Shown here in pieces: positions 6,998 through 15,402 of a DNA stretch of 32,000 bases. The translations under genes were made by a program, and so were the position numbers. Source of the DNA: Burkholderiales bacterium (GTDB lineage: Bacteria > Pseudomonadota > Gammaproteobacteria > Burkholderiales > Burkholderiaceae_C); contig JAFLDH010000005.1 of NCBI GenBank assembly GCA_017302505.1, positions 1 to 32,000 on the forward strand, given 5' to 3'. Within the stretch, counting starts at the first letter, position 1; every line of letters starts with the position of its first letter. The notes below the pieces were generated by a model. That model ran no database searches, had not been told where the DNA came from, and saw only the letters and a list, made by a program, of their open reading frames with translations.

Positions 6998-7009
6998 TTC
7001 GCATGCGTC
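6998..7009. repeat. degenerate copy (10/12) of the prophage palindrome, about 25 bp outside the left repeat
   Basis: TTCGCATGCGtc compared with TTCGCATGCGAA. Confidence 0.35.
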
Positions 7010-7024
7010 GACGACGCTGAACGT

Positions 7025-7327
7025 CTATCGTTTAGTTAACATAATATACAAACCATTACCGGGATCGTCCACGCCCAGGGCGCGGGCGAGGGTTTCACGC
7101 TTCGTCGCGTCTTTCTCCTGCGAAAGCACCGCCGCATTGATTGCGGCTTGCACGTTCAAGCCGGCAACAGCGGCGATCCTGCCTGCTAGGGCAGGGGGCA
7201 GCGGTTTCGTGCCGCGATAGACCTTCCCGATGAAGGACTCGTCTTCACCCAGTTTCTGCGCCAACTGGTAGCGGCTGGCTACCATAGAAGTTAGCGCAGC
7301 GTCAATCAGGGATTGTCCGTAGTGCAT
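7025..7327 (-). CDS. phage repressor-like small HTH protein (putative)
   Basis: 100 aa from ATG 7327 (MHYGQSLIDAAL..). Candidate helix-turn-helix SRYQLAQKLGEDESFIGKVYRG. Divergent from the replication module. Its last codons run through the left dif-like repeat. The track's 154-aa version adds an implausible N-terminus. Confidence 0.5.
   Translation of the reverse strand: MHYGQSLIDAALTSMVASRYQLAQKLGEDESFIGKVYRGTKPLPPALAGRIAAVAGLNVQAAINAAVLSQEKDATKRETLARALGVDDPGNGLYIMLTKR
7034..7061. repeat. left dif-like site (attL candidate)
   Basis: AGTTAACATAA-TATACA-AACCATTACCG. The reverse complement of the first 17 nt (TGTATATTATGTTAACT) matches the E. coli dif central region plus XerD arm (TGTATA-TTATGTTAAAT) at 16/17. 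The other arm shows no XerC-arm similarity. Confidence 0.6.
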
Positions 7328-7478
7328 ACCGGTCCTTTGGTCCTGTAGTCTCTGCCCCGTGCTGGGCCATCGGTCCAGCTTGACCGGGGGTCCAGGGGTG
7401 CGCAAGCTACCGCAGTCAATCGAAGAGGTCAACAGGGTTACAGAAACCCTAGAGCGACAAGGGGTCTTCAAGGCCCTG
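7328..7478. promoter_or_regulatory. divergent control region between the repressor-like gene and the replication module
   Basis: Non-coding gap between divergent genes. TTGACC at 7379-7384 is a possible -35 element. No confident -10 element or operator was identified. Confidence 0.3.
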
Positions 7479-7760
7479 ATGGACTTCAAGGCTCGCGATC
7501 ACGTGCAGCTGCGGGTGCGCGGCGAAACGTTGTGCGGCGTGGTCCGTGGCGATTACGAACGCTGGATCAGCGGTTCGGGTGTGCGCGTCAGCGTCAAAAC
7601 GTCCATCGGTGATTTCCGCGTGCGGCCGTTTGACCTGCGCAAGTGTTCGAGCGTAGGGGATGGCCGCTGCGCGTGCGTGGACGGGGCGCGCAGCGCACCG
7701 GCCGCGCTCGCGCGGGCGTCCGGTGTTCCCCCCCTCGGTAACACGGGGGTAGCAGCATGA
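7479..7760 (+). CDS. hypothetical phage protein (93 aa) upstream of rep
   Basis: GC-rich third codon positions. The stop overlaps the rep ATG in ATGA (7757-7760), suggesting translational coupling. Confidence 0.5.
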   Translation: MDFKARDHVQLRVRGETLCGVVRGDYERWISGSGVRVSVKTSIGDFRVRPFDLRKCSSVGDGRCACVDGARSAPAALARASGVPPLGNTGVAA

Positions 7761-8914
7761 AGCCGGGCAGGACGGTAGCAGCGCAGGCGGTGTCCGATGG
7801 GCGTCGCATCAAGTGGACCCTGGAACAGGCGATCCAGGGCGAGACAGACCGGGTCCGGGTCGATTGGTTGCGGTTCACGCTGCCTCTGGGCGCGGTCGTG
7901 CCGTTCGAGCAGCGGGGCGAAGTGGACCCCGGTGTATTGGGGACGATGGACCGGGCCGAGCGGGAGGTTCAGGTGCTGGCTCGGGGCATCGAAGCTGAAC
8001 CCCTCGGCGCAATGTACGTCGCGCGTAAGGCGGCGGTGATGCTGGCCGATCGGCTCGGGTTCGAGGTCGGCACCGTCGAGGATCGAGGGCAAGACTTCTA
8101 CCTTTGCCGGGTTCCGCTGCTGGTCAACGCTGAAACGGTGGGCTTCGTCCTGGCCGGCTCCGACAAGTCGGCACAACAGGCGGGAACCGTTCACTTCAAC
8201 CTGTTCGGCGCTGCTTGCCTTCGTGTTTCGCATGCTCAATGGGCGGGCGTTGCGTCTTGGGTTCGGGATGCGTCGGGCTGGATCACGCGCTGCGATCTGG
8301 CGCTAGACATTTTCGAGGGCTTCGATATTGCGTCGATGCCTCAAGCGTGGCTGAACGGGCAATTTGACGTTCGCGGGCAAAGACCCGCGGAGCGTGAAGC
8401 CGGGGCGTGGACTAGCGGTCACTCGCGCACCTTCTACGTTGGCAAGCGTGAGACCGGGAAAGAGCTTCGCGGGTACGAAAAGGGCGATGAGTTGTTCGGC
8501 CATGAAGCCGGCGATCCCTGGTTCCGCGCCGAGGTCGAGTTCCGCAATAACGCACGGGTCATAGACCCGGCCATCCTCGAACGGCCGGCCGACTTCTTCG
8601 CGGGTGCCTATCCGTGGTGTGCGGCTCTCCTGGCCGCGCAAAGCGTCCAGGCTGAACCCGTCCGTATTCCGGCCGGGCAGCGGGTCAAGGATGCCACCGC
8701 ACGCGCTGCGGTTTCGCGCACTGCGGCCTGGGTCGTTCGCGTTGCGATGCCGTCGGTTCGCGAGGTATTCGACAAAGCCGGCGAGTTCTTCGACGAACAG
8801 CTGATCGGCTCCGTTGGGCGGCTTTCGCACCGGCTGCGTGGCTGGTCCGAGGTCGAGCGGCGGCAAGCCTTCGCACAAGTATTCGGCGCGTCCCCCCTCG
8901 CGTCGGGTCCATGA
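7757..8914 (+). CDS. rolling-circle replication initiator (Rep_trans / RstA-gpII-like)
   Basis: 385 aa. RVDWLRFTLP, ITRCDLALDIF, TFYVGKRETGKELRGYEKG and FRAEVEFRN blocks match my recollection of the Rep_trans (PF02486) family used by CTX-type and other inoviruses. Confidence 0.8.
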   Translation: MKPGRTVAAQAVSDGRRIKWTLEQAIQGETDRVRVDWLRFTLPLGAVVPFEQRGEVDPGVLGTMDRAEREVQVLARGIEAEPLGAMYVARKAAVMLADRLGFEVGTVEDRGQDFYLCRVPLLVNAETVGFVLAGSDKSAQQAGTVHFNLFGAACLRVSHAQWAGVASWVRDASGWITRCDLALDIFEGFDIASMPQAWLNGQFDVRGQRPAEREAGAWTSGHSRTFYVGKRETGKELRGYEKGDELFGHEAGDPWFRAEVEFRNNARVIDPAILERPADFFAGAYPWCAALLAAQSVQAEPVRIPAGQRVKDATARAAVSRTAAWVVRVAMPSVREVFDKAGEFFDEQLIGSVGRLSHRLRGWSEVERRQAFAQVFGASPLASGP

Positions 8915-8936
8915 AGTTAGGGGGTAGGAAAGCATC

Positions 8937-9239
8937 ATGAAGTTTCAAAGCCGTATCACGGTCTTCGGCATGAAAGCGTCGAAGGGCGATTACGAGGGCG
9001 TCGAGTTCGATTCGACAAAGGTTTACACGCTGACTTCGATGGACGAATCGAAAGGCAACATGAAGGGGCAAGCCTGCGTCGAGTACACGCTCGGCCTGTC
9101 CGAGGAATATGACAAGTTCAAGCACTTGCCGTTCCCCTTCGACGCTGATGCGGAGTTCGAGATCGTCACCACGGGCAAAGCCTCGAAGACGGTGCTTCGC
9201 ACTCTGCGGCCGGTCGAGGCGAAGCTGCCGAAGCCCTAA
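8937..9239 (+). CDS. ssDNA-binding protein candidate (g5p position), 100 aa
   Basis: Small ORF directly after rep, preceded by GGGGGTAGGAAAG. The functional call rests on position and size only. Confidence 0.55.
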   Translation: MKFQSRITVFGMKASKGDYEGVEFDSTKVYTLTSMDESKGNMKGQACVEYTLGLSEEYDKFKHLPFPFDADAEFEIVTTGKASKTVLRTLRPVEAKLPKP

Positions 9240-9242
9240 GCC

Positions 9243-9446
9243 ATGCGGCTCCTCATCCAGTCCTGCGAAACGTGGCAGTTCCTGCACGTGTCGCCCCGTA
9301 ACGGTGATGTGACTTGGACGCCTTCACTTTTGACGGCGATCCGGCACGGCATCGTGGCGGAACCGGATGAGGCCGCGCAGCTGATCGAGGACCACGCAGA
9401 AGTCGGCGGCTGCATCGTCGTCAACCTGGATGCGGCTCGGTCCTGA
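9243..9446 (+). CDS. hypothetical phage protein (67 aa)
   Basis: Starts 4 nt after the previous stop. Third-position GC bias is consistent with coding. Confidence 0.5.
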   Translation: MRLLIQSCETWQFLHVSPRNGDVTWTPSLLTAIRHGIVAEPDEAAQLIEDHAEVGGCIVVNLDAARS

Positions 9447-9458
9447 GTTGTCGCGGCC

Positions 9459-9557
9459 ATGCACCTTCCGAACCCCCTCGAACTTTTCGGCTGGTGGATG
9501 GCTGTTTGTATCGCATATGCGTGGGCGGTTCTCATGCGAAACCGCCTCATGAATTAG
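9459..9557 (+). CDS. 32-aa hydrophobic micro-ORF (g7p/g9p-like minor coat candidate); not in the ORF track
   Basis: My translation is MHLPNPLELFGWWMAVCIAYAWAVLMRNRLMN: a single TM-like core with a basic tail, located just upstream of the major coat gene as in Ff phages. Confidence 0.4.
   Translation: MHLPNPLELFGWWMAVCIAYAWAVLMRNRLMN
9529..9540. repeat. palindrome copy, 11/12
   Basis: TTCtCATGCGAA, 78 bp upstream of the coat gene ATG. A related palindrome CGCATATGCG lies at 9512-9521. Confidence 0.6.
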
Positions 9558-9617
9558 GCCGGGAGTGCCTGATCCGTCGCCGGCGCGGGTTTCGTCGGTT
9601 TCTTTGGAGTGTTTGCA

Positions 9618-9809
9618 ATGAAGTTCTCGAAGTTCGGCGCCATCGGCGCAACCCTGTCCGGTCTGGCGATCCAGGCCCACGCCGCCGTCCCGGCGGCCGT
9701 CACCACGGCGCTCGAAGGCATGCAGGAGGACGGTCTGGCCGTGGCCACCGCCGTACTCGTCGCCACCATCGTGGTCGCCGCCTTCAAGTTCATGAAGAAG
9801 GGCATGTGA
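9618..9809 (+). CDS. major coat protein precursor (g8p-like)
   Basis: 63 aa. Signal peptide MKFSKFGAIGATLSGLAIQAHA. The predicted ~41-aa mature part has an acidic N-terminus (EGMQED), a hydrophobic core (LAVATAVLVATIVVAAF) and a basic C-terminus (KFMKKGM). GGAG at 9606-9609 precedes ATG 9618. Confidence 0.85.
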   Translation: MKFSKFGAIGATLSGLAIQAHAAVPAAVTTALEGMQEDGLAVATAVLVATIVVAAFKFMKKGM

Positions 9810-10237
9810 TGGGCTTCCCGGCGCGGTCGGCATTTGCGGTTGCGGCCTTCGTGGCGGCGGCTTCGGTGCAGGCTGCGCCGGGCTTTGGCTATCAGGACCG
9901 GTGCTATGCGACAAAAGCCGAAGCTCTAGCGGCGTTCTGCCGCGGGGAATTTCCGAAGCTTTCGCTTGAGACGGATGAATCGGTTTCCGCGAACACGTGG
10001 TCGTTGCTAATCAAGGTGGCAACGTGTCAGTCGGTTACGGCTCCGGATACGCTGAATCTCTGGTGGAACCGACCCGGTCAAAACGGGCAGGGCGGCGTCG
10101 CGATGAAGCTCGATAACTGGCCGCCGTGCGACACGGACAATTATTTCGGGCTAAGTGATGCTCTTCTCCTCGGATGGGGCATCGGCACCGCTTGGATTCT
10201 GACTGCGGCGGCGCTTCGCATGCGAAAGGCGTGGTAA
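9809..10237 (+). CDS. secreted/membrane-anchored phage protein (142 aa), minor virion protein candidate
   Basis: The ATG overlaps the coat stop (ATGTGATG). Signal peptide MGFPARSAFAVAAFVAAASVQA. C-terminal TM LLLGWGIGTAWILTAAAL followed by RMRKAW. The upstream part of the track ORF (from 9494) is rejected. Confidence 0.7.
   Translation: MGFPARSAFAVAAFVAAASVQAAPGFGYQDRCYATKAEALAAFCRGEFPKLSLETDESVSANTWSLLIKVATCQSVTAPDTLNLWWNRPGQNGQGGVAMKLDNWPPCDTDNYFGLSDALLLGWGIGTAWILTAAALRMRKAW
10215..10226. repeat. palindrome copy, perfect
   Basis: TTCGCATGCGAA at the 3' end of the 142-aa ORF, just upstream of the 28-aa ORF and the g3p-like gene. Confidence 0.7.
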
Positions 10238-10323
10238 TGCTAATTGCAGATTACATCTATCCTATCGCGCTCTTAGTCTGCCTTTGCGGCGTGGCTTGGA
10301 TCATCGTCAAGGGGCTGGAATGA
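10237..10323 (+). CDS. 28-aa hydrophobic micro-ORF (g7p/g9p-like candidate); not in the ORF track
   Basis: My translation is MLIADYIYPIALLVCLCGVAWIIVKGLE. Its ATG overlaps the upstream stop (TAATG) and its stop overlaps the downstream ATG (ATGA at 10320-10323). Confidence 0.5.
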   Translation: MLIADYIYPIALLVCLCGVAWIIVKGLE

Positions 10324-11822
10324 AAGACGGTCCAGCTGCATTCTTCCTGTCGTTTCTCGTCGTCGGGCTTCTTCTGGTGTCGATGCCTCGATGCGCAATG
10401 GCTCTAACTCCACCAGTCGGCACTATTCAGCCGGCGATTGATGCCACCGGGCGGGTAACTGTCGGTGTTGGAGCAATGAATAATTCTTGGGGCGTCACTA
10501 TCGGGACGAATCCAGGCGGCACGAACATTGGTAAAGATTTCGTGATGCCCGGCCCAGGCGGTCGCACCGCTGCGGCTAAGGTAACTGCTAGGCTCACGGC
10601 GGCGGAGCTTGCGTTATTCGCTGGTCGCGCGGCTGGTGCGATAGGTGCGGCGGCATGGGTCGGCTCCATGCTGTACGACTATTGGCAGGATGAGCGAGTG
10701 CAGCCGGGCGGCGCGTCTGGTGCTCTTGGGCGTGATCCAGGTCAAGCGACCGTGCCGTTCGATCAGTGGTGCGTTGCGGCCAGTGGGGTGCAATCGGCCA
10801 GCACTTGGACGGGCTGCTATGGAACACCGATGGCGGCCATGCAGGGGCTCGCGGGTTACTTCAATGATACGAACTATCAAGACGGCGGCGGGCTTAAAAG
10901 CGTCTGGTCTGCGCCCACTGTTTGCAACGCGTCCGGCGACTTCGTAGATTGCTGGCTTCGCGTGGCGCAGTGCTTCGGCGCAGGCTGCACTGTCGGCGCG
11001 CCGTCGAACTATCAACAGGTCCGGGTAAACAAGTCGGTTGGTGCGCAGTGCCCGGCCTGGATTGATTTCTACGGCAATAACATTGCTGCCGGCGGTAGCG
11101 CAATCGGCCCGGATGGCAAGTGTCCTAGTGGCACCTATGCGCCTATCACTGCGGAAGAGTTGCAAGCGATACGCGAAGCGCGGGCTAATGCGTGGGTGCC
11201 CGAAGACCTAAACGAACTGACCCGGGAGATTCTCGGCATCGTGCCGATTCCGGTGCAAGACGTTGCGGACGTAGAGGTTGGGAACGTCGTGCCCGGCAGC
11301 TTGAGCGGTCCGGAAACCACCACCACCACGGAAGTCGGCGGGCAACAGGTCGAGCAGAAAGAAGCCATCGGGTGGGATTGGTCTCGTGACCCGTTGCGGG
11401 GTACTGAAGGGAACTGGATCGAGACAAAAACCATCTTTGAGAAAGACGCTAACGGTAACTGGCAAACCAAGTCCACCACGCGCACTCAGGGCGAAACGTC
11501 AGGCGATGCTGCGAAGAAGGCCGGCGATATGTGCGCGCTAAACCCCGATGCGGCAGCATGCAAGGCCCTTGGCACTGCACCGGAACCGGACACGATTCCG
11601 GAGCAGGAAATCGAGTTCGAGATAACGCCTGTTTCGGGGTTTGGACCGTCAACGGCGGCATGCCCGGCGCCTCGAACAATCAGCGTGTCTCATGGTGTCC
11701 AGCTGTCTATGCCGTTCGATCTGCTGTGCGAGTTCGCGGACGGAATACGCCCCGTCGTTCTAGCCATGGCATGGATCGGCGCGGTGTTCACGTTCATGGG
11801 CGTAAGCCGGCGCGAGGGGTAA
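10320..11822 (+). CDS. adsorption/minor coat protein (g3p-like), 500 aa
   Basis: Signal peptide MKDGPAAFFLSFLVVGLLLVSMPRCAMA. Cys-paired N-terminal regions, a Thr-rich linker (PETTTTTE) and a C-terminal membrane anchor VVLAMAWIGAVFTFMGV followed by SRREG. It is the largest ORF and sits at the g3p position. Start moved to ATG 10320. Confidence 0.75.
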   Translation: MKDGPAAFFLSFLVVGLLLVSMPRCAMALTPPVGTIQPAIDATGRVTVGVGAMNNSWGVTIGTNPGGTNIGKDFVMPGPGGRTAAAKVTARLTAAELALFAGRAAGAIGAAAWVGSMLYDYWQDERVQPGGASGALGRDPGQATVPFDQWCVAASGVQSASTWTGCYGTPMAAMQGLAGYFNDTNYQDGGGLKSVWSAPTVCNASGDFVDCWLRVAQCFGAGCTVGAPSNYQQVRVNKSVGAQCPAWIDFYGNNIAAGGSAIGPDGKCPSGTYAPITAEELQAIREARANAWVPEDLNELTREILGIVPIPVQDVADVEVGNVVPGSLSGPETTTTTEVGGQQVEQKEAIGWDWSRDPLRGTEGNWIETKTIFEKDANGNWQTKSTTRTQGETSGDAAKKAGDMCALNPDAAACKALGTAPEPDTIPEQEIEFEITPVSGFGPSTAACPAPRTISVSHGVQLSMPFDLLCEFADGIRPVVLAMAWIGAVFTFMGVSRREG

Positions 11823-11825
11823 CGT

Positions 11826-12101
11826 ATGAACTGGGCAACCTGGCTAATGAGTCTCGCGGCGCCGATTGCGAAGCGCGTCGCGGTCGCACTCGGTTTCGGT
11901 TATGTCAGTTTCGAGGGCGCTGCTCTGGTTCTGGAAAACGCATTCGCGTCGGCGCAGGGGGCCTTAGGCGGGCTCGTCGGGGAAGCGGCGGCGATCTTGG
12001 CACGCGCTGGCATGTTCGATGCGATGGCGATTGCGTCCGGCGCGCTGGTGGCGTCCTTGTCCTGGGTCATGCTGCGTAGGTTCGCGCTTGTCTCGTCTTA
12101 G
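11826..12101 (+). CDS. g6p-like minor coat protein (DUF2523-like), 91 aa
   Basis: MNWATWLMSLAAPIAKRVAVALGFGYVSFEG.. with several hydrophobic segments, located between the g3p-like and Zot-like genes. Confidence 0.7.
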   Translation: MNWATWLMSLAAPIAKRVAVALGFGYVSFEGAALVLENAFASAQGALGGLVGEAAAILARAGMFDAMAIASGALVASLSWVMLRRFALVSS

Positions 12102-12105
12102 GGGT

Positions 12106-12117
12106 TTCGCATGCGAA
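12106..12117. repeat. palindrome copy, perfect
   Basis: TTCGCATGCGAA, 5 nt after the g6p-like stop and upstream of the zot-like gene. Confidence 0.7.
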
Positions 12118-12210
12118 CGGTCTTTCTTCGTCGCTCCCTGTGGCGCGCATGGTCCGCGGCGATAGGCTTCGGGGTTCGGCAGCTGCTGCGCTCGTTGTTC
12201 AGGTGATGCG

Positions 12211-13278
12211 GTGGCGATCACGCTGATAACAGGCGTTCCGGGCAGTGGGAAGTCGGCGCTTATCGTTTCGCTCTTGGCAAAGCAGCCGGCAGACCGGCCG
12301 GTTTATGTCCACGGCATACCCGATCTAAAGGTCAAGCACCTAAAGCTCGAAGACCCGCACCGCTGGCACCTCGATCTGCCGGATGGTGCGCTAGTGGTTA
12401 TTGATGAGGTGCAGGAGGTATGGCGCGCGGCCGGGGCAGGGCAGAAAGTGCCGGAGTCGATACAGGCCCTCGAAAGGCACCGGCACCGGGGCTTTGATTT
12501 CATCATTGCCACGCAGGGGCCGAAGCTCGTTCATTCAAACGTTCGAGCCCTGGTGAATCCGCACATTCACTTGCGTAACCTTGGCTTCTTGGGGCGTCGA
12601 TATTATGAATGGCCGGAGTGCTCTGATTTGCTGTCTTGGAAGTCTGCGCCGATTTCCAAAAAGTACAAGCTTCCAAAGCGCGTGTTCTCGGAGTATCGAA
12701 GCGCAACCATTCACAACAAACCGGCAAACCGGATACCTGCGTCGGCCCTGGTGCTCGGTGTCGGGGTTGTCGCCCTGGTCGGGCTCGGCTGGTATCTGAG
12801 CGGGCGGCTCCTTCGCGGCGCGGGCGTCGAGGGCGAAGCCGTCGCGACAGCACCGGCGGCAGCTTCGGCACCGGCAGGGCAGGGCGGGGCGCTTGATCGA
12901 ATCATCAACGGGGCGCGCGAGGTCGAAGCGGCGGCCGGCATCGCACGCTGGCCGGAGTACGCAAGCGGCGCGCTGCGGACCGAGGTCGAGCCATTCGAGG
13001 GGCTTGCCGTTGTGCTCGATGGCCACTGGCAACGGGACGGGGCAACCTTTGCGAGTTTTGGGCTGATCGACGCTGGCCAGCGTATCGCGACGATGACACT
13101 CGCGCAGGTAGTGCGTGCCGGGTACTCGTGGAAAACGCTCGCGCCATGCGTCGGCGCGCTGCGGTTCGGCGAGGTCGAGCGGCGGGTTATATGCGGCAAG
13201 CCTGCACTGCCGCTACCCGCACCGGCCGCAGGTGCAAGCGTCGAAGCTAACGCTTCGACGGTGCCGGCCAGACTCTAG
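12211..13278 (+). CDS. Zot / g1p-like assembly ATPase
   Basis: GTG start after AGGTGA. Walker A ITGVPGSGKS, Walker B-like LVVIDEVQE, a central TM ALVLGVGVVALVGLGWYL and a C-terminal periplasmic-type domain. Confidence 0.85.
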   Translation: MAITLITGVPGSGKSALIVSLLAKQPADRPVYVHGIPDLKVKHLKLEDPHRWHLDLPDGALVVIDEVQEVWRAAGAGQKVPESIQALERHRHRGFDFIIATQGPKLVHSNVRALVNPHIHLRNLGFLGRRYYEWPECSDLLSWKSAPISKKYKLPKRVFSEYRSATIHNKPANRIPASALVLGVGVVALVGLGWYLSGRLLRGAGVEGEAVATAPAAASAPAGQGGALDRIINGAREVEAAAGIARWPEYASGALRTEVEPFEGLAVVLDGHWQRDGATFASFGLIDAGQRIATMTLAQVVRAGYSWKTLAPCVGALRFGEVERRVICGKPALPLPAPAAGASVEANASTVPARL

Positions 13279-13310
13279 GCGTTCGGAAACGTCACGGGTA
13301 GGGCAGGGCG

Positions 13311-13322
13311 TTCGCATGAGAA
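13311..13322. repeat. palindrome copy, 11/12
   Basis: TTCGCATGaGAA, immediately 5' of the 13325-13343 hairpin. Confidence 0.6.
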
Positions 13323-13343
13323 AAGGCCCGGCGAAGCCGGGCC
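13321..13343. terminator. hairpin between the convergent zot-like gene and the reverse-strand accessory operon
   Basis: Stem GGCCCGGC (13325-13332) / GCCGGGCC (13336-13343), loop GAA. The preceding AAAA gives a T-tract on the minus strand. Confidence 0.55.
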
Positions 13344-13366
13344 GCGATCAATTTCCTGGGTGCGGT

Positions 13367-13594
13367 TCACCCGATAACGCGGTCCACGTTGCGGATTTCG
13401 TATCCGTTCCGCCCGGCCCATTCCTTCGCAAGCCATGAGGCTTCCGCGCTTGTGTCCGCTGGCGGTGTGTTGGGCGTTGCTGCGCTCGGGCCGCGGTTGT
13501 GGTAGTCGTCGGCTGTCACTACCCGGCCGACGAAACGCACCCGGCCCGGCTCGTCGCTGGGTACGGGTTGCACGCTGATGAAAGCGAAGTTCAC
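13367..13594 (-). CDS. hypothetical protein (75 aa) coupled to the parB-like gene
   Basis: The GTG at 13594 overlaps the ParB-like stop (GTGA). Sequence (V/M)NFAFISVQPVPSDEPGRVRFVGRVV...WLAKEWAGRNGYEIRNVDRVIG. The track's ATG at 13627 would overlap parB by 37 nt. No family recognised. Confidence 0.45.
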   Translation of the reverse strand: MNFAFISVQPVPSDEPGRVRFVGRVVTADDYHNRGPSAATPNTPPADTSAEASWLAKEWAGRNGYEIRNVDRVIG

Positions 13595-14442
13595 GCGCCG
13601 GCCTTCGTCAGTTCGGCGCAAAGCCATTCGATCCCGCCCAGCTGCTCGAAGGCGGCGAGGTACTGCACCGGCACGGCCACCTGAAAATGCGTCGTCGGAT
13701 CGACCGGCGCGGCGGTGGTGGTTTCGGTGTGGTTGGCCTTGGTGTGCGTCGTTGTCGTCGTCACGGGTGCGGGCGCAGCTGCGGGCGGTGCCTTCAAAGC
13801 GGCGAGGGCATCCCGGGCGATCTGGCGATTCATGTCGCCGGCCTGGGCAATGCGGATCATTCGGCCCATCGTTAACAGGGCGCGCGGATCGGTTTTCGTC
13901 AGCTTGTCGATTTGGTTGAGGAGAATAAGCGTTTCGAGGTCCTGCACGATGCCGCGATCGAGCATTTCGGCCGCGATCGTGGAAAAGCTCGAACCCGTCA
14001 AGCTCAGGTGTTTCGAGACCCAGGCGGGCGACTTGTTCAGGATCGTGCCGACGCGCTTCGCGTTGTCGTAGATCATCATCAGGGTCCGCACGGCGCGCGC
14101 AGTGTCGGCGAGGGTCATCTGCTCGCGTTGCAGGTTCTCGGCAATCTCCATCTGATAGGCGGCTTCTTGCTCGGCATTGCTGATCAGGGCGGGCACCTCG
14201 GCGAACCCGGCCAGCTTCGCGGCGGCGATGCGGCGGCGGCCGGCGATCACTACGAAAGGCGGGTTCCCGTCCGGGCCGGCTTCGTCGTCGGCGGTGGCGT
14301 TGCGAAGCACCACGGGCTGCAACATGCCGTGAGTCTTCAGCGACTCGGCAAGCTCGGACAGGCCTTCTTTATCGAAGCCGTTCGATAGGCGCACGTTCGA
14401 GGTGGTGCGGATCTGAGCGATGGGGACCAGCTGCACATTCAT
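13591..14442 (-). CDS. ParB/KorB-like DNA-binding protein (ParB N-terminal domain plus HTH), 283 aa
   Basis: From ATG 14442: MNVQLVPIAQIRTTSNVR. Box-II arginine patch VVIAGRRRIAAAKLAG. HTH-like ILNKSPAWVSKHLSL. Low-complexity PPAAAPAPVTTTTTHTKANHTETTTAAP linker and a short C-terminal domain. The track's 94-codon N-terminal extension covers the hairpin region and is rejected. Confidence 0.8.
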   Translation of the reverse strand: MNVQLVPIAQIRTTSNVRLSNGFDKEGLSELAESLKTHGMLQPVVLRNATADDEAGPDGNPPFVVIAGRRRIAAAKLAGFAEVPALISNAEQEAAYQMEIAENLQREQMTLADTARAVRTLMMIYDNAKRVGTILNKSPAWVSKHLSLTGSSFSTIAAEMLDRGIVQDLETLILLNQIDKLTKTDPRALLTMGRMIRIAQAGDMNRQIARDALAALKAPPAAAPAPVTTTTTHTKANHTETTTAAPVDPTTHFQVAVPVQYLAAFEQLGGIEWLCAELTKAGA

Positions 14443-14469
14443 GGCTAACACGCCGTCAATGGCCGCACG

Positions 14470-14481
14470 TTCGCACGCGAA
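14470..14481. repeat. palindrome copy, 11/12, 28 nt upstream of the parB-like ATG
   Basis: TTCGCAcGCGAA. Confidence 0.6.
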
Positions 14482-14541
14482 ACGCACCGGCCGGGCCTGA
14501 GGCACCGCCCTATGCGATACCTTCAGCAGACCTTCCTCGCT

Positions 14542-14560
14542 CCCCTCGCAGGGCGAGGGG
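14542..14560. repeat. short hairpin carrying the CCCCTCGC motif
   Basis: CCCCTCGC (14542-14549) - AGG - GCGAGGGG (14553-14560). Confidence 0.6.
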
Positions 14561-14611
14561 CGGGGGGGAGTGGGTTGGTGGAAAACAGGGCGAAGGGCCG
14601 CGCTGTGGCGA

Positions 14612-14685
14612 CCCCTCGCAAAAAAGACACCCCCGTTAACCCCCTCATAGCGGAGCGGGGGGTTAACGGGGGTGTCTGCGAGGGG
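14612..14685. repeat. 74-nt composite hairpin (candidate packaging signal, ssDNA origin or protein-binding site)
   Basis: Perfect 19-bp inner stem GACACCCCCGTTAACCCCC (14626-14644) / GGGGGTTAACGGGGGTGTC (14658-14676) with a 13-nt loop. Outer 9-bp stem CCCCTCGCA (14612-14620) / TGCGAGGGG (14677-14685), with an AAAAA bulge on the left arm. Confidence 0.75.
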
Positions 14686-14820
14686 TTGGCGCAGCGTGGA
14701 CCGTAGCGGGGTGCAGCCTGCCAAAAGGCGGCGGACGTGACAGCTTCAGCTGGCGCGGCCGCTGCTTGGCAGGCGGATCAGGTGCAGCGGCGGTCGAACA
14801 CCACCGCGCGAGGGATCGTT

Positions 14821-14851
14821 ACCCGAAGGGCCGAAACCCGAAGGGGTTCGG
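14821..14851. repeat. tandem direct repeat ACCCGAAGGG x2 with an overlapping imperfect hairpin
   Basis: ACCCGAAGGG at 14821-14830 and 14836-14845. CCGAAACCC / GGGTTCGG can pair around GAAG. Confidence 0.5.
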
Positions 14852-14890
14852 TTGCAATGCCATAGAGCCCGGTCCGTAGGACGCGCTTAA

Positions 14891-15160
14891 CTACCTGTAC
14901 CATCCGAAACGCTGCCACCAGTGTGGCATGGGATTCGTCGTCAGGCTGACGATGCTATCGAACTGGCCGCGGGCCTTTGCGGCTTTGATTTTCGCGACGA
15001 CATTCCAGTCGCGCACGTACTGTGCGGCGCGTGGTGAATCGGGGTCGATGCGCGGAACGGCGAGCAGCCATGCGGCTATGTCGTAGTGGTAGACCGGTAT
15101 TTCGCCGAAAAGGTCGTATGGTGGATGTATGCGGTGGGCGCGTGGTCTATGCTTCCGCAT
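14891..15160 (-). CDS. hypothetical protein (89 aa) next to the right phage end
   Basis: Longest ORF in this stretch, with roughly 70% GC at third positions by hand count. No family recognised. It competes with a back-to-back plus-strand ORF starting at 15161. Confidence 0.35.
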   Translation of the reverse strand: MRKHRPRAHRIHPPYDLFGEIPVYHYDIAAWLLAVPRIDPDSPRAAQYVRDWNVVAKIKAAKARGQFDSIVSLTTNPMPHWWQRFGWYR

Positions 15161-15374
15161 ATGGGAATCATGGACCGCGACTGGTATCGCGAACGCTGGG
15201 AAAAGCGGGTGCTTGGTTGGAGCCCGGCTAGGCGGCGCAGGGTTGCGAAGGGCTCAGTTCCGGTGTGGCCGTTTGTTGTTCTTGCTGCGTGCCTAGTGGC
15301 CGCGTGGGTGTTTGCCAAGGTGATGCGCGCTTTGTTCTGAGGCTCCCGACAGCCATACGCAATAGCTTGCGCAT

Positions 15375-15402
15375 AGTTGACATAATATACATCGTCGCGC
15401 AT
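15375..15402. repeat. right dif-like site (attR / candidate functional dif)
   Basis: AGTTGACATAA-TATACA-TCGTCGCGCAT. The XerD arm plus central region is dif-like (15/17 to the E. coli dif central region plus XerD arm). The other arm contains a TGCGC core but lies 1 nt out of register with the E. coli XerC arm. Confidence 0.55.

Follow-up and report, generated by a model that had tools for sequence, protein, structure and literature searches.

A dispersed 16-bp palindrome as the probable operator of an orphan KorB-type ParB in an integrating filamentous prophage of a Burkholderiales bacterium

Filamentous phages (inoviruses) are thought to control chronic infection and lysogeny by means of small repressors and host factors. 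The closest described counterpart of the system considered here belongs to a plasmid: KorB of RK2 is a sliding clamp dependent on cytidine triphosphate (CTP), with 12 O_B sites, some of them kilobases away from the target promoters, and a disordered N-terminal peptide that binds IncC (PMC11790492). We analysed a stretch of 32,000 nt from a Burkholderiales bacterium (assembly GCA_017302505.1, contig JAFLDH010000005.1, positions 1 to 32,000; hereafter the window), in which an inovirus prophage of ~8.36 kb (7033..15391) encodes a ParB-family protein and carries dispersed copies of the palindrome GTTTCGC-NN-GCGAAAC. Comparison with related sequences leads us to propose, with a probability of roughly 70%, that this palindrome is the operator of the prophage's own orphan KorB-type ParB and that its copies constitute a dispersed regulatory network.

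The phage system resembles that of RK2 in several respects. The phage protein combines a ParB-family CTPase fold with a helix-turn-helix (HTH) domain, and KorB is its best structural match; one short palindrome is dispersed at promoters or gene starts and within genes, one site lies beside the protein's own operon, with six sites across 8.4 kb here, and the nearest plasmid relatives of the phage ParB are encoded in ParA-ParB-KorA/TrfB operons. In contrast, the operator differs from that of RK2 (TTTAGCSGCTAAA), the phage has neither a KorA/TrbA partner nor IncC/ParA, and its ParB has no N-terminal extension, carries GRRR rather than GERR in box II and is predicted to end in two short helices. 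The element itself is an 8.4-kb integrating filamentous phage of single-stranded DNA (ssDNA), not a conjugative plasmid.

Chromosomal ParB/Spo0J proteins give the strongest profile matches, and sites cluster around parB in both systems; the palindrome also has the 16-bp length and the outer arms GTTTC...GAAAC of parS (tGTTTCACGTGAAACa). Its core, however, is GCNNGC rather than ACGT, which places the half-sites 2 bp further apart, no ParA accompanies the phage protein, and the sites extend over the whole of a small genome. ParB-type palindromes scattered among phage genes, with reported effects on expression, belong to SopB of the temperate phage N15, but that SopB is of type Ia, is accompanied by the SopA ATPase and serves a plasmid-prophage that is linear and depends on partition; N15 differs from the present prophage in protein family, binding site and type of virus. 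Noc with NBS, VirB with virS and BisD of ICEclc are likewise ParB-fold CTP switches with site-specific loading and action at a distance, sometimes on mobile elements, whereas their sites, partners and outputs are different, and none of them has been reported in inoviruses. Our literature search returned no description of a ParB in inoviruses, no bacterial paper in the library searched contained the motif string, none of the deposited phage genomes carried this ParB, and megablast of the prophage against deposited phages recovered no relative. A plasmid-style ParB/KorB control circuit was not found described for this kind of virus.

The first-pass annotation had pointed to a 12-bp palindrome, TTCGCATGCGAA, in five copies, two of them perfect and the whole set beyond chance, as a candidate operator or parS network of a ParB/KorB-like protein. 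Our recount gives the same result: with at most one mismatch the 12-mer is found exactly five times in the window, at 9529, 10215, 12106, 13311 and 14470, the copies at 10215 and 12106 being perfect, while dinucleotide shuffles of the window contain 0.18 copies on average and five copies arise in none of 100. This 12-mer forms the core of the 16-bp palindrome, for which 86 pooled unique sites of relatives yield the consensus G-T-TTCGC-NN-GCGAA-A-C; the central dinucleotide is AT in ~73% of these sites and otherwise free, and the positions flanking the 12-mer are T/A in 86% and G/C in 51%. A position weight matrix (PWM) trained on the sites of relatives alone, with a shuffle 95th percentile of 15.3 bits, detects six strong sites of 19-23 bits in the window, every one within the prophage; the 23.6 kb of host DNA contain nothing that scores 16 bits or above. 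The motif copies are a real, selected network of cis-elements.

The five sites reported before do lie at gene ends or between genes, as had been claimed, and the list lacked a sixth, which we designate site 1 (7111..7126, CTTTCTCCTGCGAAAG, 22.4 bits; sites and repeats are given without strand). It is located within a repressor-like gene, and its core TTCTCCTGCGAA is found identical in a related locus, L003 (handles of this form denote loci and contigs of the comparative sets). Site 2 (9527..9542, GGTTCTCATGCGAAAC, 20.4 bits) follows orf67 and precedes the coat gene by ~90 nt, a position conserved in L003, L083, L084, L085 and L008. The perfect cores belong to site 3 (10213..10228, GCTTCGCATGCGAAAG, 23.0 bits), at the 3' end of orf142 and 105 nt before the ATG of the g3p/TspB-like gene, and to site 4 (12104..12119, GTTTCGCATGCGAACG, 21.8 bits), 5 nt past the DUF2523 stop and 105 nt before the Zot start. 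Site 5 (13309..13324, CGTTCGCATGAGAAAA, 19.4 bits) occupies the convergent junction between Zot and the parB operon, 33 nt past the Zot stop and adjoining a hairpin at 13325-13343, and site 6 (14468..14483, CGTTCGCACGCGAAAC, 19.0 bits) lies 27 nt upstream of the parB ATG (14442). Neighbouring sites are 0.7-2.4 kb apart. Both perfect 12-mers begin exactly 105 nt before the assigned starts (10215/10320 and 12106/12211), the Zot start being an uncertain GTG; this identical spacing could be a coincidence or reflect a common promoter geometry.

Two weaker copies had also been proposed. The one at 8227 corresponds to a decayed site in Rep (8225..8240, GTTTCGCATGCTCAAT) that retains one good half-site and scores only 11.9 bits, and a full site is retained at about the same Rep position in L003, L083, L084, L085 and L005. 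The other, a 10/12 match at 6998, is no site, as it scores 1.8 bits and lies outside the prophage. Many ParB-bearing relatives have a motif copy at about Rep residues 157-160, the copy that is decayed in the window, and a Rep-internal copy is also present in the ParB-less siblings L186 (2146), L187 (2010) and L189 (509); coding constraints of Rep may partly account for its retention. An origin of the motif as a coding artefact was considered and rejected; recurrent peptides such as FRMRN and FACET simply arise when one DNA word is read in its three frames, in open reading frames (ORFs) that are unrelated or spurious. The central ATG of the motif is in frame in some ORFs.

The linkage between motif and protein was assessed in 38 loci encoding a ParB of the same clade (30-55% identity; 527 kb), collected from genomes and IMG/VR. 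These relatives required an alignment-based search, a single-protein scan of viral contigs having found none; ParB homologues proved common on contigs of 8-10 kb. The core TTCGCNNGCGAA occurs 97 times in the clade loci (184/Mb), compared with seven times in 1.96 Mb of loci with more distant ParBs (3.6/Mb), and nearly all loci with a clade ParB bear the motif, down to ~30% identity. Among contigs sampled by Rep similarity, all seven that encode ParB have sites and 16 of the 19 that do not encode it are siteless, the other three being siblings that share one site in Rep; four additional site-bearing contigs without ParB stop just before the parB position of their full-length siblings. None of the 80 closest Zot relatives (635 kb) has ParB, and sites are found only in the same three sibling contigs. 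Because sites more than 1 kb from parB are enriched as well (188/Mb in the ParB-bearing loci, with at least one in 34 of 38, versus 4.7/Mb in the Zot set), the association is more than a parB cassette carrying its own sites. The site nearest to a parB boundary is at a median distance of 20 bp, compared with ~750 bp at random, and within 150 bp in 23 of 30 loci. Most relatives have a site right downstream of parB, and a site right upstream of it recurs likewise.

The same arrangement was observed in an independent set of six loci from Logan/ENA assemblies (L305-L310), all of them inoviruses by Pfam, in which the PWM detects 4-9 sites per phage, including some that precede parB by 5-6 nt or follow it by 21-37 nt, and none in the host flanks. 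The upstream site in this set is often TTCGCAGGAGAA, which doubles as the Shine-Dalgarno sequence. In L005, L084, L085 and L308 a site, GTTCGCACGCGAAAC, falls within the 5' end of parB, where it encodes a conserved VRTRN by manual translation. The motif is thus neither a generic host word nor a generic inovirus word, being sparse in other ParB loci and in Zot relatives and absent from the host flanks; clade phages with the homologous ParB keep it, and sister phages without ParB are siteless or single-copy. These comparisons of sequences support the earlier suggestion of a dispersed operator or parS network for the ParB/KorB-like protein. A locus that encodes ParB almost invariably has the motif, but the reverse is not true: some elements bear the motif and no ParB.

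Plasmids provide a second line of comparison. The nearest plasmid relatives of the phage ParB (31-35% identity) are encoded in operons of the IncP-type central-control layout, and two betaproteobacterial plasmids use the same palindrome at dispersed, operator-like positions. Nitrosospira plasmid pNRS527-2 (41 kb) has four exact copies of AGTTTCGCATGCGAAACT and one variant, TTCGCATGAGAA, identical to the variant at window site 13311; one site lies 49 nt upstream of mobC, a second between convergent genes, and the others are in genes of the type IV secretion system and the coupling protein. In the 12.5-kb region examined of a Massilia plasmid, CTTTCGCGCGCGAAAG occurs twice, one copy preceding the first par-operon gene by ~40 nt. 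The related plasmid loci use TTCGCNNGCGAA and yielded no copy of the IncP-1 O_B word TTTAGC.GCTAAA, and a search for further plasmids with the same ParB subtype beyond these two returned only distant IncP-1 and PromA-type KorBs. When the plasmid module was compared by tblastn with the window and the clade phage loci, ParB alone gave homologues (34-37 hits); KorA/TrfB and ParA gave none.

The parB gene (13591..14442, minus strand, 283 amino acids) is encoded on the strand opposite to the phage structural genes. Its product comprises a ParB_N CTPase domain, an HTH, a disordered linker and two short C-terminal helices; Pfam reports ParB_N (1.5e-16) plus a weak KorB-domain hit, the PHROG assignment is ParB-like, and many homologues have a precomputed PF08535 KorB hit. 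Box II reads GRRR and box III ENLQRE in the window protein, and G68, R70, R71, E102, N103, R106 and E107 are invariant in the family; box II (window residues 68-71) is GRRR or GHRR in phages and GERR in the plasmid relatives. The family profile aligns to solved CTP-bound structures of ParB/Spo0J, Noc and KorB, most strongly to chromosomal ParB/Spo0J (E 1e-32 to 1e-28), and continues through the HTH, including the KorB DNA-binding domain 1R71 (E 2e-11). In the AlphaFold2 model (predicted local distance difference test 85.8) the best fold match is RK2 KorB 8QA9, with a template modelling score of 0.76-0.77 over 218 columns; the linker at 231-243 is disordered, two short helices are predicted at 259-282, and the fold search matched no solved C-terminal domain. 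The first beta-strand of the N-domain starts from residue 3, so that the window ParB has no N-terminal extension, while its plasmid relatives have 20-25 additional N-terminal residues. No ORF with the KGGxGK[ST] signature of ParA and no hit to the plasmid ParAs was detected in the window or the clade loci. Sequence and model assign the window ParB, an orphan, to the KorB branch of the ParB CTPase family. The gene call of the Joint Genome Institute (JGI) gives a longer protein of 298 amino acids (P0001; L001 5688-6584) with a GTG start at 14487, which would place the 14470 site within the coding sequence; aligned with its family, the protein more probably begins at the ATG at 14442.

The recognition helix, KSPAWVSKHL in the window protein, follows a pattern common to phage and plasmid proteins (KSxxWVSK[HR]), and its last residue covaries with the operator. 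A one-sided half-site variant, TTCTC, is present in three window sites and recurs in relatives. Where WVSK is followed by His (window residue 145) it occurs in 12 of 19 loci and 35 of 154 half-sites, and where it is followed by Arg in 0 of 19 loci and 0 of 92 half-sites. The association is significant by locus (Fisher p = 4e-5, uncorrected for phylogeny). Covariation of this kind is the pattern to be expected if the recognition helix reads that base pair.

The comparative data thus show the motif, its linkage to ParB, family-wide conservation, a shared recognition helix and a KorB-like fold, and by analogy with RK2 we infer binding, CTP-dependent sliding and repression as the outcome. ParB dimers would use the recognition helix of the HTH (KSPAWVSKH) to bind the six sites, take up CTP at the N-terminal domain, close into a clamp and slide outward. 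With a spacing of 0.7-2.4 kb between sites, such clamps could reach all of the 8.4-kb prophage or replicative form. The site 27 nt upstream of parB, like those overlapping the parB ribosome-binding site in relatives, would provide autoregulation, and the sites before coat, g3p and zot and in the repressor gene could damp or coordinate phage transcription as with KorB.

Several findings weigh against an operator network of the phage's own ParB. The exact 16-mer GTTTCGCATGCGAAAC is present on 34 IMG/VR contigs, mostly of 4-14 kb, of which only nine encode a clade ParB when a profile hidden Markov model (HMM) is included in the search; about 12 inovirus contigs bear the motif but show no ParB gene, which at least four of them truly lack. 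L205 and L219 truly have no ParB yet keep one site each, L195 and L220 are circular (they have terminal repeats), without ParB and with one site each, and L198, L202 and L212 have 3-4 sites on contigs that show no ParB. A sigma-70 scan of the high-GC prophage DNA gave no usable promoter and hence no geometry of sites relative to promoters. Without a KorA/TrbA-type partner and a ParA the RK2 mechanism is not transferable unchanged, and with GRRR in place of GERR in box II CTP hydrolysis may differ. In canonical ParBs the Glu of box II is linked to CTP hydrolysis, and as it is replaced here the phage clamps might be slow hydrolysers.

Several of these contigs derive from ParB-bearing elements or have them as siblings. 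L205 and L219 are deletion siblings of L008; they are without ~5 kb that includes parB and retain one site, versus six in L008. L196 and L210 are fragments at least 99.8% identical to the ParB-bearing locus L012, the L199-L219 group and L222 have ParB-bearing prophages as siblings, and some of the 25 contigs with the 16-mer and without ParB are chance matches or unrelated phages (an RNA phage, low-GC contigs); another four are the Mu-like phages described below. As to the arrangement of the remaining copies, in L195 and L220 the 16-mer lies beside a second palindrome, TTGCGCATGCGCAA, downstream of Zot; L212 has four copies of the 16-mer; and L198 has four motif copies within 1.2 kb (1053-2211) upstream of a different Rep, a cluster adjoined by ORFs that look VapBC-like on inspection of the sequence and by a gene that Pfam identifies as ParD-like.

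The ParB could instead bind the same sites mainly as dispersed, parS-like centromeres or as a condensation scaffold for the replicative form or a terminus prophage region, with little to do with transcription. The outer arms GTTTC...GAAAC are those of canonical parS and in some sites are lengthened to TGTTTC...GAAACA, sites flank parB as parS often does, the family profile is closest in sequence to chromosomal ParB/Spo0J, and the plasmid relatives have ParA. On the other hand, there is no ParA (deviant Walker A) in the window or in any clade phage locus, the window ParB does not have the N-terminal extension in which ParBs and KorB carry the peptide that interacts with ParA or IncC, and the sites are found at gene boundaries and at the parB ribosome-binding site. 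We therefore regard a primary role in partition or condensation as rather unlikely.

A broader proposal, equally tentative, is that the palindrome is a shared operator code of otherwise unrelated betaproteobacterial elements (conjugative-type plasmids, inoviruses with and without ParB, and Mu-like phages), onto which a resident KorB-type clamp could load to silence or partition the others. A clamp acting in trans would explain why ParB-less phages keep 1-4 sites, and if the proposal is true it would imply a layer of cross-regulation or exclusion between elements in one cell. Four Mu-like phages (L207/L214 and L213/L223, with rve transposase, Mor and DUF3102) have a single 24-bp palindrome each, AAATGTTTCGCATGCGAAACATTT, which is too long for chance; its longer flanks fit the arms of canonical parS even better, and no ParB was detected on the stretches of these phages.

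Returning to the operator network proposed for the phage ParB, we consider it very improbable that another factor binds the palindrome and that the link to ParB is indirect, candidates being the CI/YdaS-like repressor (7025-7327), a KorA-like protein or a betaproteobacterial host regulator. Such a factor would account for the motif in some ParB-less inoviruses and Mu-like phages and for the four-site cluster of L198, which lies in a regulatory region beside small ORFs of DNA-binding type, including the ParD-like one. But a repressor-like protein is detectable in few motif-bearing loci, KorA/TrfB and ParA have no phage homologues, close Zot and Rep relatives from probably similar hosts are without the motif, host flanks are siteless, and the half-site variant tracks a residue of the ParB recognition helix. 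Searches of the ParB-less contigs for an alternative common binder (HMM of the ParB C-terminus, ORF clustering, Pfam) found none, the clustering recovering no shared family but Zot. The product of orf86 was considered as a KorA-like partner and rejected; Pfam gives nothing for it, and its homologues are confined to L001 and L002, the source metagenome contigs that bear the same prophage as the window.

That the sites are structural or recombination elements (hairpins of ssDNA or mRNA, Xer/dif-related sites as an earlier alternative had it, or a restriction word, GCATGC being SphI) is hardly credible, although the palindrome could form a small hairpin, the half-site GTTTCGCAT resembles the XerC arms of dif and dif-like repeats do flank the prophage. 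The half-site changes are one-sided and uncompensated (TTCTC opposite GCGAA) and break the pairing, and the motif holds operator-like positions on double-stranded conjugative-type plasmids. A dif site of 28 bp has a XerC arm, a central region of 6-8 bp and a XerD arm, whereas the 16-mers are symmetric, only 2 bp separate their half-sites, and no XerD arm lies next to them. A GCATGC restriction word would be expected to keep its centre, but here it is the flanks that are conserved and the centre that varies.

If the proposed circuit is confirmed, a CTP-dependent clamp with genome-wide operators would add plasmid-type global control to the biology of inoviruses. The system is compact, with one protein and six sites in 8.4 kb and neither ParA nor KorA, and could serve as a model for the way in which an orphan ParB-fold clamp silences or organises DNA. 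It would also represent a new operator specificity within the KorB family, with His/Arg after WVSK versus G/T at half-site position 4 as the candidate determinant, and the occurrence of the same operator on plasmids and several phage types makes regulatory cross-talk between mobile elements testable.

The prophage was delimited from Pfam and PHROGs annotation, JGI gene calls, its bounding repeats and a dip in guanine-cytosine (GC) content, which falls to 0.60-0.65 across the element and makes it a low-GC island within the window. The repressor-like HTH gene (CI/YdaS-like; 7025-7327) is on the minus strand, and orf133 lies between it and the gene of the Rep_trans initiator (7757-8914). The gene of a protein resembling single-stranded DNA-binding protein follows (8937-9239), then orf67, the coat gene (9619-9809; Phage_Coat_B per the JGI gene call), orf142, the g3p/TspB-like gene (10320-11822), the DUF2523/pVI-like gene (11826-12101) and Zot (12211-13278); orf86, on the minus strand, comes after Zot and before parB. 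Direct repeats of dif-like sequence, TAGTT[A/G]ACATAATATACA, mark both attachment ends of the element: TAGTTAACATAATATACA on the left (7033..7050) and TAGTTGACATAATATACA on the right (15374..15391), which align at 17/18 positions. The reverse complement of the left repeat, TGTATATTATGTTAACTA, is similar to the dif central region together with the XerD arm, and the position of the dif-like repeats on both sides of the prophage suggests integration of the XerCD type.

A near-perfect hairpin of ~98 nt is located in the intergenic region upstream of parB (14600-14697). Its minimum free energy as ssDNA is -51.1 kcal/mol (z = -9.9 relative to shuffles), and none of 200 shuffles folds equally well; the hairpin may be a packaging signal or the origin of the complementary strand in this filamentous phage. 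A sister prophage (L309 and L310, ParB 67% identical) is integrated at the same host locus in related metagenome contigs, with Ank-repeat and TatD genes on one side and a malic-enzyme gene on the other.

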